The translations under genes and the position numbers were made by a program. Below the pieces are notes generated by a model. The model did no database searches, had not been told where the DNA came from, and saw nothing but the letters and a program-made list of their open reading frames with translations. From a virus (taxonomy: Duplodnaviria > Caudoviricetes), in IMG/VR virus record IMGVR_UViG_2974512403_000001, positions 1-64,000 of that record: a stretch of 64,000 bases of DNA. One strand, written 5' to 3'. Below, piece after piece: positions 3,680-30,768 of the stretch (position 1 is the stretch's first letter; each line of letters begins with the position of its first letter).

Positions 3680-3710
3680 AATATTTACCATCCTTTTTTT
3701 GATTGACTAA

Positions 3711-3739
3711 ATTCTAGCATATTTATTTTTTAATTGCAA
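3711..3739 (-). promoter_or_regulatory. SigmaA-type early promoter
   Basis: TTGCAA-N17-TAGAAT with TG extension, CAATCAA leader. Confidence 0.8.
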
Positions 3740-4049
3740 CCCGATCATTAAATAAATTATTAAAGCTTCTTAAAACGTCTTGATAACCGCCACTACATTC
3801 GTATTCGTCATCATCGTACAAGCAATATTTTTCTCTTTCGGGTGTTCCTTTAGCCGCATAATATACAAACGTATATTTCCCGTTAATCGTAAAAATATAC
3901 ATCAGTCCGGCGGTTTGGGACTTGAAACGCTCTACAACTATTTCAGCGTCTTGCTTTCCGTAAGCCAAGGCGTTCGCAATTCCGACAATTGTTTTTGTTT
4001 CCCGGCAACGATATTCAACCTTGCTTTTTAAAAATAACTCTTGATCCAT
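3723..4049 (-). CDS. Hypothetical protein (108 aa)
   Basis: Start MDQELF after GGAGG. Confidence 0.8.
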   Translation of the reverse strand: MDQELFLKSKVEYRCRETKTIVGIANALAYGKQDAEIVVERFKSQTAGLMYIFTINGKYTFVYYAAKGTPEREKYCLYDDDEYECSGGYQDVLRSFNNLFNDRVAIKK

Positions 4050-4080
4050 TTTTAACAACCTCCCTCGCTTGATTGATTAA

Positions 4081-4109
4081 AGAATATCATACGCCAGGAT
4101 CAAAAACAA
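4081..4109 (-). promoter_or_regulatory. SigmaA-type early promoter
   Basis: TTGTTT-N17-TATTCT with TG extension, CAATCAA leader. Confidence 0.65.
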
Positions 4110-4296
4110 CCCCCAGGGCAAAAAATATTTAATTAATCAAAAAACGATTTTTCATATTATAGTAGGAAGATCTATTTTTATAACTCAATTTTAAGCTTAA
4201 ACGCCCGTTATATAAGTATTTAAGGGCTGTTTTTATTGCTTATGCGTTATTTTATATAATCGTTTTACATATTATAGTAAGAAAAATTCTTTTTAT

Positions 4297-4600
4297 ATGT
4301 GTGTTTGTTTATGTAAGCACCTATATACTAGCGTTTTAAAGCTTATATGCATGTGTGTATATGTGTGTTTTAGGGAATGCGTGCGTGATCATGCGTTTGT
4401 GTTTACATGTGTGTATGTGTGTTTATGCGTACTTGTGTGTGTATGCGTGTTTCGTAGGGCGGTGTCGCATGTACGTATGTGTGCGTGTTTCGTATAGCGC
4501 TATATGCGTGTCTGCACGTGTTTTCCTATGTGTGCGTGCGTGTTTTTCATGAGGCTTACGCAGGCGTGGGCTATTAAATCTAAGCTGTGTATGTGTGAGT
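4297..4600. repeat. TG-rich alternating purine/pyrimidine repeat tract
   Basis: Repeated TATGYGTGTTT-like units (TATGTGTGTTT, TATGCGTGTTTCGTA, TGTGCGTGTTTCGTA). Confidence 0.85.
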
Positions 4601-5155
4601 GATATGTTAAGGTGGCCAAGATGCCATTGCCCCATATTAACATTTGGCCGCTCAAGCAAAAGCGCTAAATGATGCTCATAGTCTATTTGGACGTTTTTGT
4701 GCATAAAAATATCGCTAGAAGCATTGAATAACATATCCAATGCATAGCAAGTCTGCCCGTAGCATTTTGATTAGAATGAGCATATGAAAAACCATCCAAC
4801 AAATAAACCATTATCAAATTATTGAGAATGACTGGGCATTATCTAATAGTAAAACTCTAATAAATACCGCATAGGAATATTTTTAATATTTTTTCAGATT
4901 GCAAGCATTAATCTAGTGTCGACAAACATTTAATAAATTATTTTTATATGTAATTATTAACAATGATGTTTTCCAAGATGCGTTTCAATCATTAATCATG
5001 TCAATCGTCGCTAACCTCATAACATGTATAATTGTAAAACTTTATCTGGATGAATTATTATAAATATATAAATATGGCTAGGGCCGGGGTATATTGAAGA
5101 ACTTTTTCCGACCAACATTTCTCGTGTGTTACATATTTACTGTCAGTAGGGGTAA

Positions 5156-5181
5156 ATAAAAAGCCCTCTATTGAGGACTAA
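5156..5181 (-). terminator. Intrinsic terminator
   Basis: Minus: AGTCCTC-AATA-GAGGGCT + T run. Confidence 0.75.
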
Positions 5182-5184
5182 TCA

Positions 5185-5340
5185 TTATTTAACAGGAAAC
5201 TCATAAATGTTCTTGTTCCCACATTGCTCACATTGATATTGCGCTCTTACATGTTTTCTAGTTGTCGCAGCCATCGAAATTTTCTTAAAGTATTGGTTCG
5301 TATGACAAACAGAGCAATAGCAAAGTATTTCTTCTTTCAT
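5185..5340 (-). CDS. Zn-ribbon protein (51 aa)
   Basis: CSVC...CEQC; start moved to MKEEIL. Confidence 0.75.
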   Translation of the reverse strand: MKEEILCYCSVCHTNQYFKKISMAATTRKHVRAQYQCEQCGNKNIYEFPVK

Positions 5341-5534
5341 TAATCCTGCCCCAACTTTCTTCCACATAAGGGGCAATAATTTATTTTTACTTCATTATAA
5401 TCTGGTTCGTCGTTATAATCATCCCAGCCATCATATGCCAAATAATTCCCGTCGACATATATATAGCTGGATTTAAAACTCAAGATGGGATTACTGTCTT
5501 CGCCTTTGGACCCGCATATTTTGCATTCACTCAT
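5340..5534 (-). CDS. Zn-finger protein (64 aa)
   Basis: CKIC...YCPLCGRKL. Confidence 0.8.
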   Translation of the reverse strand: MSECKICGSKGEDSNPILSFKSSYIYVDGNYLAYDGWDDYNDEPDYNEVKINYCPLCGRKLGQD

Positions 5535-5668
5535 TCAATTAACCCCATTTCTCCGCCTAATAAAGGGGAGTAATTCATCTCTGTTCCCATAGTATAAACA
5601 ATCCCTTTATATTTCCAACCATATCCGTCAATAAATACACTCCCAGTGTAGCATTCTTTCATTATCAT
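5531..5668 (-). CDS. Small hypothetical protein (45 aa), not in ORF track
   Basis: AGGAG RBS; MIMKECYTG...; stop overlaps next start. Confidence 0.6.
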   Translation of the reverse strand: MIMKECYTGSVFIDGYGWKYKGIVYTMGTEMNYSPLLGGEMGLIE

Positions 5669-5715
5669 TTATCTCCTTAACATTAAAATGGTGATTAATC
5701 TGATCGCTATATACT

Positions 5716-6291
5716 TCAATAAGCGTAATATTCTGTGCGTACCTTGTTATTGTTCATGCGATTATTAATCGTACCAATATTCGTATTTTTATACTTAAAG
5801 GGCTTAGATACTTCAATTTTATTCTTCTTTGAGTTCCATGATGAGGTAAATACAACCTCATAGTGGGCAGGTTTATAGCTCGTTTGAACACGGGTACCTA
5901 CTTTAAAATTCTTAATCTTACGGTTATAACTGCTACCACTGAACCCGTCGAATAGATTATTCATCATATCTAAATCAGCTTTATTACCCTCAGCGCCAAT
6001 ATTAACACCATTAGTATCTGCTTCGTCTTGCTTACTGGTAGTTCCATCAGATAGTATAATCTCAGACACATTGACATTACGCTTATACTTATACTCATCA
6101 AACGTCCGTAGCCCAACGATATAAGCATACTTAGAACTCCCTGGTACATAATGTTGTGATACAATTTCAGCATTAGAGTTATCGTACACTGTATGTTCCT
6201 TAATTGCAATAGAGATAACATACCCAGAAACAATTAATAATACAGTCACCACTACCCCAAACAAGATATAGTGTTTCTTCTTACTATTCAC
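5716..6291 (-). CDS. Membrane-anchored hypothetical protein
   Basis: GTG start with GGAGG; N-terminal TM helix. Confidence 0.75.
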   Translation of the reverse strand: MNSKKKHYILFGVVVTVLLIVSGYVISIAIKEHTVYDNSNAEIVSQHYVPGSSKYAYIVGLRTFDEYKYKRNVNVSEIILSDGTTSKQDEADTNGVNIGAEGNKADLDMMNNLFDGFSGSSYNRKIKNFKVGTRVQTSYKPAHYEVVFTSSWNSKKNKIEVSKPFKYKNTNIGTINNRMNNNKVRTEYYAY

Positions 6292-6343
6292 TATTATCCG
6301 GCCTCCTAAAATAAGAGTTTTATCGTGATGAGTGTCATAAGTT

Positions 6344-6778
6344 TTACGACACGTAAATAGGTTTAATGTTCACCTTATCCCAATCTAACGGGATGTCTTT
6401 GCGTTCTTTAATTTTTGAAATCTCCGCCAGCGTAAAAATTGTTTGATAGCTATCCGTATTAAGATCATCAGCAAGTAAAGGTTTATTGTTTTCATCAATG
6501 TTCAAATATTCATTAAGCACATTTACTTTGTACTTAGTTTTGTCTTTTCGATCTTCGACCGGGGTTGCTGATAGTTCAGCCATAATCATATACGCTTTTT
6601 CAAACATAGGGACACTTTTGCTCATAGACGTTAATGATTCAAGACCATATCTATAAGGTCTAACGTAGATAATTAAGGAGTCCTGATAGAAAACATCAAA
6701 CTCTCCGTCGAGATCAACGTCGGCGCTGTAATTCTTACTCAATGATTCGATCTGTTGTTTCGCTTCGTTATATTGCAT
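6344..6778 (-). CDS. Conserved phage protein (paralog family with 9315, 10489)
   Basis: TPVEDR and FTLAEI...PLDWDKV motifs. Confidence 0.8.
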   Translation of the reverse strand: MQYNEAKQQIESLSKNYSADVDLDGEFDVFYQDSLIIYVRPYRYGLESLTSMSKSVPMFEKAYMIMAELSATPVEDRKDKTKYKVNVLNEYLNIDENNKPLLADDLNTDSYQTIFTLAEISKIKERKDIPLDWDKVNIKPIYVS

Positions 6779-6793
6779 TTTTTAATTCCTCCA

Positions 6794-7009
6794 TTACTCC
6801 ATATTTGCATCCCAGACATCTTCTAATACCGTGTCGGGGTCAATTTCTTTGATTTCAAACTCAGTATTGCCGTCAATGAACCTGGGTAACGTACCCATAA
6901 CTTTTTCTTCCGCCTTTTTTGCCTTATTTAATGAGGTAAAAATTCCATCCACACCAAACTCGCTCTGGTAAGATCCATATGATCTGTCTATCAAAACATA
7001 TAACTTCAT
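6794..7009 (-). CDS. Hypothetical protein (71 aa)
   Basis: Start MKLYVL after GGAGG. Confidence 0.75.
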   Translation of the reverse strand: MKLYVLIDRSYGSYQSEFGVDGIFTSLNKAKKAEEKVMGTLPRFIDGNTEFEIKEIDPDTVLEDVWDANME

Positions 7010-7473
7010 TTTTCTTCCTCCACTTGATAACCGTCTAGCCATGCACGGGCAAACAGATCTTGATTATCAGACGGACACAACCAACTTAATATGTCGTGGA
7101 TCATATCATGTGATCTGGCATGACCAAACAACACGATATTGCCAGATAAAGATGTTCCTATGGTAGTGTTGGCACGCTTACAATCCGTAAGGTAATTTGC
7201 AACATTTTTAGGAATCACTGGTAAATCAGCATAAGTCTTCTTGAACACATCGTTCTTAATAGCCCAATGCTCGCCATTAACTCCAGATGCAATCCAGTCG
7301 CCAATATTCACTCTTAGCTCACCTTCCAATGTTGGTAAGAAGTAAGCACCCTCAAACCCCATAGCAGTAGATGCAAGCTGTGTATTAATAATATCATATT
7401 TATCAATCATCTCAGCACTGCCATCAAATTGTTCAGCCTTGATAGTAGCTGTTTTACGATAAGTTTTAATCAT
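7006..7473 (-). CDS. DUF1642-like domain fusion protein
   Basis: N-term IKAEQFDG...TLEG...GDWI domain; C-term LPVIPKNVA...FARAWLDGYQVEEE. Confidence 0.75.
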   Translation of the reverse strand: MIKTYRKTATIKAEQFDGSAEMIDKYDIINTQLASTAMGFEGAYFLPTLEGELRVNIGDWIASGVNGEHWAIKNDVFKKTYADLPVIPKNVANYLTDCKRANTTIGTSLSGNIVLFGHARSHDMIHDILSWLCPSDNQDLFARAWLDGYQVEEEK

Positions 7474-22955: not shown

Positions 22956-22992
22956 ATTATATTCTCCATCTTTATTTTATTAACTAAATACA

Positions 22993-23021
22993 ATTATAGC
23001 ATTAAAACATTGAATTGTAAA
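22993..23021 (-). promoter_or_regulatory. Leftward sigmaA promoter (divergent pair)
   Basis: TTTACA-N17-TATAAT with TG extension. Confidence 0.8.
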
Positions 23022-23033
23022 CAAAACTTTATG

Positions 23034-23062
23034 TTGACTTAAAAATAATTCCGTGTTAATAT
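23034..23062 (+). promoter_or_regulatory. Rightward sigmaA promoter driving the ORF-free structured region
   Basis: TTGACT-N17-TAATAT with TG extension. Confidence 0.8.
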
Positions 23063-23068
23063 TGTATT

Positions 23069-23880
23069 TACAAATAAATGAAAACTTAATAAGTATCATG
23101 GATCAAGCGGAAAACCTACCGCGAAACAAATGGGTATGTGCTGGCGCGGCTTTAGGGAAATTGAAGTAACGTCAGTCGAGTCAAGTAGCAAAAACTCCAA
23201 AAGCTACTAATCACTAAGATGAACGCTAAACCGACAAAATATCGGCAGGCGGAAGATGGAGTGGAAAGGGCCAAGGTTCGCGCGGCTTGTACTAAGTTAG
23301 ACACTGGCAGATATGGTTTCTGTTATTTTCTATAAATAGGCACCGTGACTTAACTCAATCCGAAAGGCAGACTAACAGATATGTGAAAACTAAGCTTCTG
23401 GGACGGACGGCATAGAAGCAGAAAGTTAGTTGATTGGTTGAAATACCAATCAGAGACAATTTCTCTTGTATACGTGACGCGCTCAGTGTTGCGAAACTGA
23501 TTACAAGTCTTTGCTCCTTAGTCAGTGTATCAGTCTGCACTTTTTCCATTGGCTAAGGCAAAGACTTGTTCCGCTCAACAACTCGTATTACAAAACTGGT
23601 AGCCGATACTTTCGTTACTTTAAATCCTAACTAAACAAAACAAATAACAACCAAACTTGATATTAATTGGATTTGGTTTTTGGCTTTTAGTTTTGGTGAC
23701 ACGTATGTGTGTCACGGTTGGTGCTAGACTAATAACGCTTATTAGCTACTAGCGCGACGTTGCCCGAAATAGGGTGAGAAACTGGCCCTTCGGCAAGAAC
23801 ACTACTTAGTTGATCCCAGCTAAGCCGAGCTGTTTTCTAAAGCGAGACCCCTAGCACTATGCTAATTAGAAACATATTTG
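23069..23880 (+). ncRNA. Large (~800 nt) structured ncRNA candidate, GOLLD/ROOL size class
   Basis: No plus-strand ORF in track; own promoter; more GC-rich than flanks; long-range helices 23161-23171/23613-23623, 23503-23514/23558-23569, 23138-23144/23851-23857; hairpins at 23696-23715, 23805-23824 and others. Confidence 0.75.
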
Positions 23881-23918
23881 GACTTATGTTAGTTAATTAT
23901 GAGATTACAAAAAAGTTG

Positions 23919-23947
23919 TTGAAAAAAACTATATGTTGTGTTATAAT
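23919..23947 (+). promoter_or_regulatory. SigmaA promoter for the HNH gene
   Basis: TTGAAA-N17-TATAAT with TG extension. Confidence 0.8.
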
Positions 23948-23983
23948 TAAATCATGTAAAATATTAATAAGGAGTAATTTGTA

Positions 23984-24622
23984 ATGAGTGGTATTGAATC
24001 TTGGAAACTACACCCAGAGTTTTGTTTTATCGAAGTGAGCACATTAGGTAACGTACGCACACTTGATAGAGTAGTGCCACGTGGAAAAGGGACACAATTC
24101 GTAAAAGGGCGAGTGTTGAAGCAACAATGTGAAAAAAACGGTTATCTACATGTGCATTTCGGCGAAAATGGAAAAAATTTTTTTAGGCTCGTCCATCGTC
24201 TTGTGGCTCAAACTTTTATTCCTAACCCTAACAACCTACCAGAGGTTAATCACAAGGATTGTAATCCAACAAACAATAACGTTTCAAACTTGGAATGGAT
24301 TACACGTAAAGACAACAATCAATATCGGAACAAATATGGAGTATCATATAAAGAAGCCGCGCGAAAGAAACCTGTATGTGCAATAAACTTAGATACCTTA
24401 GAAGTATGCCGTTTCCCCTCACAAATGGAAGCGAGTCGCGTTTTGGGAGCTAACGTAGGACATATTAATAATGTTATATTAGAAAAACGAAACCACACGC
24501 ACGGTTATTGGTTTACAAACGCCGATAACAAGGCCGTAGAAGCCACCAGAGTTAAATTTGGCAACAGCATGGCTCGTAAGGTTGAAGAATTGATGATTAA
24601 TAAAGAATTACAATTAGTATAG
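23984..24622 (+). CDS. Free-standing NUMOD4-HNH homing endonuclease (I-HmuI-like)
   Basis: WK...EVSTLGNVR (NUMOD4); VHRLVAQTFIPNPNNLPEVNHKDCNPTNNNVSNLEW (HNH); C-terminal FPSQMEASRVLG NUMOD1-like helix. Confidence 0.9.
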   Translation: MSGIESWKLHPEFCFIEVSTLGNVRTLDRVVPRGKGTQFVKGRVLKQQCEKNGYLHVHFGENGKNFFRLVHRLVAQTFIPNPNNLPEVNHKDCNPTNNNVSNLEWITRKDNNQYRNKYGVSYKEAARKKPVCAINLDTLEVCRFPSQMEASRVLGANVGHINNVILEKRNHTHGYWFTNADNKAVEATRVKFGNSMARKVEELMINKELQLV

Positions 24623-30003: not shown

Positions 30004-30768
30004 TTGCAATCTAATGTACTTAACGAACAGTCTGTAACGAAAAACGAAAACTATTTTAAGTGGCTATTTAATCAAATCAAGGGGTGGCCACAACAAAATT
30101 ACTACTTATTCTGGTTTGCCATCGGTGCACAAGTAATGACGCTTGTTAGCAACCCTATCACATTAGTTTCATTTTTAACTTTCGTTGGTACGACTTTAGG
30201 CGTACTTTGCGTTTTGAGTATTAATGCTGCTAAATCTGTCAATGGATGGTTAGGGCTTGTATCAGCGATGCTATTCATCTATGTAGGGTTTGAAGCCAAA
30301 AATTACCTCAGCATGGCCGAACAGTTAGCATACATTGTTACTCTTGATCTGCCGGTGTTATTAGCAGTTAAGTCTTGGAACGGAAATACTGTTCATAACT
30401 TGCGGAAATTTGGCTCAAAAGAATGGATGATCGCAATTGTTGGAACATTGGTTGTTTATGCCTTGTCTGGTTATTTAATTGGTGCGTTAACAGACGATCC
30501 TCGTCCATGGATTGATGCAATTGCTTTCTCAATTAGTTTAACTGCCGGAGTTATGTGCTTCATGCGCTATAACAATCAGTATTACTGGTGGTTAGCATCT
30601 GGGTTAGCACAAATGGTTTTGTGGTTTGTATCTTTCAAGCAAGGATCAGCAACGCTTGCAATGTTTGTTAACAGTTCAATTTACTTGATGAATGATGTCT
30701 TAGCGTTCACGGTATCGCCATGGTTCTCACGAGGGCGTAAAAATGCTGGACTAGAACAGATTAAGTAA
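30004..30768 (+). CDS. pnuC: PnuC-family transporter
   Basis: Multiple TM helices; DDPRPWIDA, MRYNNQYYWW. Confidence 0.85.
   Translation: MQSNVLNEQSVTKNENYFKWLFNQIKGWPQQNYYLFWFAIGAQVMTLVSNPITLVSFLTFVGTTLGVLCVLSINAAKSVNGWLGLVSAMLFIYVGFEAKNYLSMAEQLAYIVTLDLPVLLAVKSWNGNTVHNLRKFGSKEWMIAIVGTLVVYALSGYLIGALTDDPRPWIDAIAFSISLTAGVMCFMRYNNQYYWWLASGLAQMVLWFVSFKQGSATLAMFVNSSIYLMNDVLAFTVSPWFSRGRKNAGLEQIK

Follow-up and report, generated by a model that had tools for sequence, protein, structure and literature searches.

A candidate gene for a large structured non-coding RNA in Lactobacillus phages, with a probable modular link to the GEBRO motif

A covarying RNA fold in a gene-free gap

The gene-free gap at positions 22956-23983 of the 64-kb stretch analysed here (the window), which is part of the 79,221-bp virus record IMGVR_UViG_2974512403_000001, very likely contains the gene of a large structured non-coding RNA that is uncatalogued in Rfam 15. 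This RNA, termed the phage RNA below, is encoded on the + strand and seems to consist of a core of ~0.53 kb followed by an optional tail of ~0.28 kb, giving a length of up to ~800 nucleotides (nt). It probably shares modules, and a common origin, with GEBRO (RF02988), as judged from sequence and model comparisons. The explanation that accounts best for all results, to which a slightly better than even chance is given, is that the gap encodes a discrete folded RNA, linked to GEBRO, that serves the replication or establishment of its replicon.

Homologues of the element are detected by blastn at 69-94% identity in the Tybeckvirinae phages SA-C12, Gut-P1, Satyr, Maenad, Lenus, P1, P2 and ATCC 8014-B2 (B2), and in the herellevirus LP65. 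Lactobacillus brevis phage SA-C12 (Tybeckvirinae, Lenusvirus) is 94% identical to the window across the region. Three further copies, on the metagenome contigs L016, L017 and L018, are retrieved by a pattern taken from an invariant block. The RNA is thus found in unannotated or spuriously annotated gaps of nine named phages, which belong to two unrelated groups, and of three metagenome contigs. Scans of IMG/VR with the element pattern give nothing beyond known isolates and one chance match in a coding region (L015), the same pattern has no match in 185,579 species genomes of GTDB, and blastn with the element has no match in a plasmid collection. The copies of Lenus and L018 contain only the first ~0.55 kb of the element; in the others this part is followed by a 3' extension, the length of which varies. 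Eleven sequences were used for alignment: those of the window, SA-C12, Gut-P1, Satyr, Lenus, P1, LP65, B2, L016, L017 and L018.

The model of the core (23107-23591) was built from RNAalifold and from a scan for stacked column pairs with compensatory changes, and each helix was then inspected. It contains 99 pairs in 18 helices, including two pseudoknots (alignment A4, 11 sequences). In this model 96.6% of the cells are paired, as compared with 84.1±0.7% in shuffled alignments, none of which (0 of 500) reaches this value. Compensatory changes on both sides are found in 47 of the 99 pairs, as compared with 29.1±2.8 in the shuffles (again 0 of 500), whereas slid controls give 2-10. Since the 11 sequences are related to one another, the shuffles overstate the significance and the slid controls provide the fairer comparison. 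The model has a covariation score of 0.43, and the slid controls reach 0.05-0.08. The hairpin M4 has compensatory changes in six of its eight pairs, and the first pseudoknot, PK1 (23155-62/23458-65), has them in five consecutive pairs. PK1 clamps the loop of H2, a hairpin at the periphery, to the strand that directly follows a junction module, and the second pseudoknot, PK2 (23195-99/23257-61), clamps the loop of hairpin H4 to the strand after hairpin H7. The cells include 121 G-U and only nine A-C combinations, and pairing would drop to 86% on the opposite strand. This result indicates that the + strand is the folding strand. The minimum-free-energy z-score against shuffles is -4.2 for the + strand and -3.0 for the - strand. 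Two helices proposed by RNAalifold, 23249-53/23277-81 and 23174-82/23366-73, were dropped, because they are without compensatory changes and clash with better-supported helices.

An earlier note on this DNA, made from the letters of the window, had proposed a large, highly structured, promoter-driven non-coding RNA at this place, and this proposal is supported by the covariation among the homologues. Its remark that many G-U pairs are present holds for the alignment as well, and its local hairpin ACAAGUCUUUGC/GCAAAGACUUGU with an extension corresponds to hairpin H14, which is conserved, covaries and is paired in 97% of the cells. The long-range architecture drawn in that note does not hold. 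Its four nested pairings of 23138-71 with 23613-30 and 23823-57, and its pseudoknot 23278/23752, are complementary in the window, but are not conserved: in the 11 homologues 65.5% of their cells are paired, as compared with 64.0% in shuffles, 62 of 500 of which are as high. The 5' strands of the nested pairings are taken by H2 and PK1, which covary and are better supported, and Lenus and L018 are without the region that contains the 3' partners.

A predicted promoter of the sigma-70 type, which has an extended -10 box, is located at 23034-23062 on the + strand (TTGACT-17-TAATAT, with TG upstream), and its predicted start is at ~23069-23071. Equivalent promoter-like sites with a TG-extended -10 box are present in LP65, Satyr and Lenus, where they end 5-6 nt before the conserved 5' block, as in the window. 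The spacing between promoter and block is constant in these four sequences, which are all those checked, and the site is aligned in alignment A1. The dedicated promoter of the earlier note is confirmed as a promoter-like site. The gene that follows has its own promoter at 23919-23947 on the + strand (11 of 12 positions match), as had also been noted, and the downstream gene has a strong promoter of its own in LP65 and Satyr as well. No conserved open reading frame (ORF) is found on either strand across the homologues; the earlier note had recorded no plus-strand ORF. The window has ORFs of 38-64 amino acids (aa) inside the region, but in several homologues the longest ORFs have no more than 18-37 aa, and they lie at differing places. 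The record of SA-C12 annotates two coding sequences (CDS) for a 'hypothetical protein', SAC12_087 and SAC12_088 (L001:4137-4548), inside the RNA gene, and all other homologue records leave the region unannotated. These two CDS are probably annotation artefacts, judging from the loss of their ORFs in the other homologues.

Evidence from sequencing runs was taken from Logan contigs. RNA-library contigs of two studies, on fish gut and on a fermentation, lie inside the element at 23156-23588, 23711-23914 and 23261-23493, and give a weak hint of transcription. Wastewater, aquatic and fish-gut runs contribute small shares only, and are not taken as evidence of habitat.

Relationship to GEBRO and other known RNAs

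When the whole window is compared with Rfam at gathering level, two transfer RNAs (tRNAs) are the only matches. They are located at 39246-39481, ~15 kb from the RNA gene, the distance given in the earlier note. When both strands of the region are compared at E<=10 with lax filters, no match to ROOL, GOLLD, OLE, HEARO or the group I and II introns is obtained. The earlier note had suggested membership in the GOLLD or ROOL class, or else a new large RNA class. Membership is contradicted by the lack of a match, and also by the contig L016 (JXWR01002552.1), which carries a true ROOL (RF03087) at 4913-5478 with 140.6 bits (cut-off 99.1 bits) inside an array of ~14 tRNAs at 3695-7181. The copy of the phage RNA on this contig is located at 1250-2135 on the opposite strand, divergent from the tRNA array and 2.8 kb from ROOL. 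The presence of both RNAs on one contig indicates that they are separate genes. The contig also gives a weak match (15.7 bits) to R1, the covariance model described below, at L016:3857-3937, between two tRNA genes. The 3' hairpin of this stretch resembles a tRNA T-arm, and the stretch may be an unannotated tRNA-like gene.

The comparison with Rfam gives a partial match to GEBRO. Positions 249-338 of the GEBRO model match the window at 23361-23452 with 39.5 bits (E 2.8e-9 for the region and 4.6e-11 for the genome), a score that is one seventh of the gathering cut-off of 284.7 bits and covers only these of the 350 model positions. The model gives 37.1 bits in SA-C12, and in LP65 three weak matches that follow the model order (18.1, 7.9 and 5.7 bits); one weak match in LP65 is at model positions 165-223. 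The covariance model R1 was built in the opposite direction, from the 11 phage sequences only, and represents the GEBRO-like module with 98 positions. Three true GEBROs are available for comparison: that of Streptococcus parasanguinis (366 bits), whose plasmid-like contig also carries the genes of MobC, a relaxase, ArdC, a resolvase and ParA, that of the S. mutans plasmid pDC09, and that of an S. thermophilus plasmid. R1 matches these GEBROs full-length and at the right place, with 46.9, 48.8 and 42.4 bits respectively (E 2e-9 to 7e-8). The 3' module of GEBRO, which consists of an outer stem, a hairpin with a GNRA loop, a second hairpin and then a hairpin with a UUGAAAUA-type loop, is present in the phage RNA, and all four helices covary.

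A second hairpin motif seems also to be common to both RNAs. The 16-nt gapped motif CTAAGTC-N6-20-GATATG-N2-3-AAA, which corresponds to hairpin H7, occurs once in eight of the 11 aligned homologues (Satyr, Lenus, P1, LP65, B2, L016, L017 and L018) and once in each of the three GEBROs, in the same order, and nowhere else in the 25 loci. In the window, SA-C12 and Gut-P1, H7 has a variant form (CUAAACC-type) that covaries. The central two-tier hairpin of GEBRO has the form CggCUAAguccu...aggauAUGccG, then AAAC, and lies inside the helix 155-158/229-232; this helix and PK2 of the phage RNA each span the two-tier hairpin. A 5-bp pairing similar in sequence to the closing pseudoknot of GEBRO (113-121/342-350) seems possible in the phage RNA as helix P1 (23134-39/23587-91), but P1 is invariant.

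These results suggest that the phage RNA and GEBRO probably have a common origin. The phage RNA is classed as an expanded phage variant and not as a member of GEBRO, because its score is far below the cut-off. It differs from GEBRO in several respects. GEBRO is ~350 nt long, whereas the core of the phage RNA is ~520 nt long. The 5' 250 nt of GEBRO have no detectable match in the window, and the stretch 23095-23365 gives no GEBRO 5' match even when it alone is compared with Rfam. By blastn, GEBRO is found in six Streptococcus plasmid records and no phage, whereas the phage RNA is found in phages only, namely virulent phages of Lactobacillus. Three large stretches of the phage RNA (23140-76, 23288-23342 and 23453-23584) have no recognised counterpart in GEBRO and would be insertions or expansions of the phage lineage. 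The first and third of these stretches pair with each other through PK1, which by analogy resembles the way in which the peripheral elements of large RNAs pair. The two RNAs are alike in that both are GC-enriched non-coding islands of mobile replicons of Lactobacillales and lie close to replication functions. The GEBRO of S. parasanguinis is located downstream of the relaxase gene, and not before a conserved gene. GEBRO makes up ~6% of the 5.6-kb rolling-circle plasmids. In pDC09, a 5.6-kb circle, it is located at 5205-5500 and precedes the nick site (296-319) and rep (397-1170) by a few hundred bases (PMC3547324). Its discoverers proposed a role in replication, possibly as single-stranded DNA (ssDNA) (Weinberg et al. 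2017, PMC5737381). Of the earlier suggestion of a new large RNA class, the part that stands is that the RNA is uncatalogued in Rfam 15; the 98-nt module and the second hairpin motif tie it to GEBRO. The Rfam comparison proposed in that note (GOLLD, ROOL, OLE and group I/II) finds none of the families named, but does find the partial match to GEBRO.

Elements of the RNA and its genomic surroundings

All elements are described from 5' to 3' on the + strand. The RNA begins with a conserved and apparently unpaired leader at 23069-23106, which contains the AAAUAAAUGAAAACUUAAUAAG block and consists of near-invariant columns in alignment A3. Part of this leader (23070-23086, ACAAATAAATGAAAACT) is 82% like 23375-23391 (ACAGATATGTGAAAACT), a segment around the GAAA-loop hairpin of the GEBRO-like module. 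The leader is followed by hairpin H0 at 23107-23122 (helix 1), with GCGG/CCGC strands and an 8-nt loop, which has compensatory changes in two of four pairs and is paired in 100% of the cells. The 5' strand of the candidate core-closing helix P1 is at 23134-23139 and its partner is at 23587-23591; this helix (helix 2) is predicted by RNAalifold and is nearly invariant, without covariation. Its 3' strand lies within the invariant AUUACAAAC block, with which the conserved core ends. Hairpin H2 at 23140-23176 (23140-46/23170-76, helix 3) has compensatory changes in six of seven pairs, and its loop provides the 5' strand of PK1 (23155-62). Hairpin H4 at 23184-23208 (23184-89/23203-08, helix 5) has them in three of six pairs with 100% of the cells paired, and its loop provides the 5' strand of PK2 (23195-99). 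A short AUC/GAU hairpin, H6, at 23210-23220 (helix 7) is invariant and hence uninformative. The two-tier hairpin H7, followed by GAAG/GAAA, occupies 23224-23251 (helices 8-9), and the 3' strand of PK2, UGGAG, is at 23257-23261 (helix 6), with three to four compensatory pairs and 100% of the cells paired.

The stacked hairpin domain H9/H10 at 23288-23342 (helices 10-12) contains seven compensatory pairs. The GEBRO-like module at 23358-23455 consists of a three-way junction followed by M4, and covariation is found in its helices 13-16. Its parts are M1 (23371-76/23425-30), the GAAA-loop hairpin M2, M3 (23394-99/23414-19) and M4 (23431-38/23445-52), which has a UGAAAU loop. The 3' strand of PK1 at 23458-23465 (helix 4) follows, with compensatory changes in five of eight pairs and 100% of the cells paired. 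Hairpin H13 at 23475-23491 (helix 17) shows one-sided changes only, and the long hairpin H14 at 23507-23565 (helix 18) contains 12 pairs, four of them compensatory.

The optional 3' extension covers 23600-23880 on the + strand (alignments A3 and A5). It contains an AU-rich long hairpin at ~23628-23698, a GUGAC/GUCAC hairpin at 23696-23715 and conserved blocks at ~23744-23862. It is absent in Lenus and L018, shorter in LP65, B2 and L017, and present without the core in phage Lpa804 (MG557979.1). Covariation in the extension is scattered only, RNAalifold gives essentially no consensus for it, and no fold is proposed. In Lpa804 the blastn match is restricted to the last 0.2 kb of the region, and a core is not found by blastn, R1, Rfam or R2 (a covariance model of 23181-23263), so that the 3' domain alone is present. 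At the place of the core Lpa804 has a different gene-free stretch of ~0.8 kb (L008:1640-2440), which is followed by the 3' domain of the window RNA. This stretch has a promoter-like site of its own and a strong predicted fold (z -4.7). It is unannotated, is 95-97% conserved in Bacchae, Bromius, Dionysus, Semele and Iacchus and partly so in LpeD, and has no match to Rfam, R1 or R2. The Lpa804/Bacchae-type stretch may represent a second family of large RNAs with a common 3' module.

The gap that contains the RNA gene separates a leftward arm of genes from a rightward arm, and its GC content is 0.40-0.475, as compared with 0.19-0.33 in the flanks. The first gene of the rightward arm, at 23984-24622 on the + strand, encodes a free-standing HNH homing endonuclease of the I-HmuI type (NUMOD4, HNH_3 and I-HmuI NUMOD-like domains), and is described as context only. 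A gene of this type lies directly 3' of the RNA gene in five phages (the window, L001, L002, L005 and L008), and Gut-P1 has one HNH homing endonuclease gene on either side of the RNA gene. Between the window and Lpa804 the DNA of the RNA 3' domain is 81-84% identical, whereas the endonuclease proteins are only 63% identical. The conserved RNA gene may be a homing target or landing site for the HNH endonuclease. A gene for a putative PnuC-type transporter, on the same strand, lies 3' of the RNA gene in the window (30004-30768, assigned from a further note on this DNA and the annotation of the record), at L006:3941-4711 and at L008:3578-4348. It is ~6 kb from the RNA gene in the window and 0.6-0.9 kb from it in LP65 and Lpa804, and in these two phages genes for NadR-like proteins or nicotinamide-nucleotide adenylyltransferases follow it.

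Possible functions and significance

In the preferred explanation, host RNA polymerase would start at ~23069 from the promoter, which is of an early type, and the transcript would be a compact RNA with the core 23107-23591 and, in most phages, a variable tail. Part of the core would descend from, or share modules with, the GEBRO of streptococcal rolling-circle and mobilisable plasmids. The RNA would act through its folded shape as a free-standing particle, and not as an mRNA leader or by antisense pairing, and it would serve the replication or establishment of its replicon in Lactobacillales hosts. The last step is tentative, and its probability is judged to be somewhat short of even. It is suggested because GEBRO lies near the plasmid origin and rep, and because the phage RNA lies between the divergent replication/recombination arms of the Tybeckvirinae. 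The copies of these phages are always located at the divergence point of the two arms, and their neighbours are a helicase and a deoxynucleoside kinase on the left, and SSB, AAA_24 and a 'replication protein' on the right. RNA II of plasmid ColE1 is a pre-primer that is promoter-driven, highly folded, ~550 nt long and located beside the replication origin, and its fold decides its function. It serves as an analogy for the replication hypothesis only: it has no sequence or structure similarity to the phage RNA, and no antisense partner or RNase H site has been identified for the latter.

Several points weigh against this explanation, in addition to the relatedness of the 11 sequences and the low GEBRO score given above. 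The link to GEBRO is modular only: R2 does not detect GEBRO, and when a whole GEBRO is aligned with whole cores by gapped local alignment, the scores do not exceed those of shuffles (z -0.9 to 2.3). The evidence for a replication role is exclusively positional. The GC-skew minimum at 22.9-23.1 kb is not independent evidence, since it coincides with the switch in gene orientation. In the LP65-type phages no obvious replication genes adjoin the RNA, which is accompanied by tRNAs and pnuC/nadR-like genes. The RNA-library contigs have little depth, and one of the runs covers the flanking genes too, so that they may derive from carried-over DNA. No convincing intrinsic terminator is found in the window, LP65, Satyr or Lenus. 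A weak terminator-like hairpin is located at 23817-23832, followed by UUUUCU, and sequence conservation runs past it.

The same structured RNA may instead work like ROOL and GOLLD, as a self-assembling particle free of protein that acts in tRNA or translation supply or in counter-defence, and not in replication. ROOL (~580 nt) and GOLLD (RF01998, ~800 nt) are likewise large, ornate and pseudoknotted RNAs of Lactobacillales and their phages. The phage RNA fits them in size, being 0.5 kb long or more, and also in complexity, as it has pseudoknots, a GAAA tetraloop and a large number of unpaired bases that are conserved. Both families are associated with phages and are often near tRNAs (PMC5737381), and both are reported to form RNA-only multimers (10.1101/2024.12.08.627333). 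Vicinity to tRNAs is seen for the phage RNA in the LP65-type phages only (in LP65 the tRNA genes are 1.5-2.4 kb upstream) and on L016, where the copy adjoins the array with the true ROOL. Most copies are far from tRNAs, as in the window and in all Tybeckvirinae, where the distance is ~15 kb. The failure to match either family in sequence or structure also counts against this alternative, and the presence of this RNA together with ROOL on one contig suggests that its job is a different one and is not redundant. It is regarded as unlikely, but as the most serious competitor. The fold has also to be considered as one of ssDNA, that is, as a + strand structure, similar to a single-strand origin (sso) or associated with an origin, that recruits priming. 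This is raised explicitly by the authors of the GEBRO study (PMC5737381), and is consistent with a fold that is strand-specific, GC-enriched and located between replication arms, and with the GEBRO locus L022, which has no promoter directly upstream of the motif. However, the extended -10 promoter is at a fixed distance in all phage homologues checked, G-U pairs, which are weak in DNA, make up 11% of the paired cells, and the GNRA-type loop and the pseudoknots are typical of RNA tertiary folds. The phages encode their own helicase, and neither iterons nor tandem repeats, which were looked for as features of an origin, are found. A structure acting in DNA is therefore considered improbable.

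A very long cis-acting leader (5' untranslated region or attenuator) of the rightward early operon is a still poorer explanation. The element does lie upstream of the rightward genes on the same strand with only a weak terminator between, and the RNA-library contig 23711-23914 extends past the terminator-like hairpin. But the promoters of the downstream genes in the window, LP65 and Satyr, the position of the S. parasanguinis GEBRO, and a size and pseudoknotted complexity beyond those of known leaders argue against it. The downstream gene moreover differs among the homologues, being an HNH endonuclease gene, unrelated small ORFs or orf82. That the region encodes small proteins (SAC12_087 and SAC12_088), or is a spacer structured by chance, is scarcely credible: the two SA-C12 CDS and the window ORFs would fit the former, but ORF length, frame and position are not conserved, substitutions follow base-pairing and not codon structure, and no record other than that of SA-C12 annotates the region. 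Finally, the position of a structured RNA directly upstream of an HNH-domain gene in five phages is reminiscent of HEARO, the omega-RNA of IscB. This identity was rejected, because the HNH protein has 212 aa, is of the I-HmuI type and is without RuvC, whereas an IscB-type ORF has >400 aa with RuvC and HNH; in addition, Satyr, Lenus, LP65 and B2 have the RNA but no HNH gene beside it, and the Rfam HEARO model gives no match.

To our knowledge, very few non-coding RNAs of bacteria and phages exceed 500 nt and have complex conserved folds. Those such as GOLLD, ROOL and OLE have been found to have unexpected biology, such as the formation of RNA-only multimers. The phage RNA adds one giant RNA family with strong comparative support and two pseudoknots, and its carriers include phages that can be cultivated (SA-C12, Satyr, Lenus, LP65 and others), whose Lactobacillus hosts are easy to grow. 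It also corrects the databases, in that two 'hypothetical proteins' of SA-C12 sit inside an RNA gene. The link to GEBRO joins a plasmid motif to phage RNAs and gives both one shared hypothesis, namely a function in replication or establishment, and it provides an example of a 350-nt core that is expanded by peripheral domains pairing with each other. On a broader and more speculative view, which is put forward as a doubtful possibility, the phages and plasmids of Lactobacillales would share an RNA machine with a GEBRO-type core that is enlarged in virulent phages by mutually pairing peripheral domains. This machine would be modular, with different 5' cores of 0.5-0.9 kb joined to the same 3' domain in the phage RNA family and in the unrelated Lpa804/Bacchae-type stretch. 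Its role would be directly biochemical and not regulatory: it might start or protect the replication of the incoming replicon, for example by priming, through a host enzyme that it recruits, or by working as a ribozyme or an assembly.

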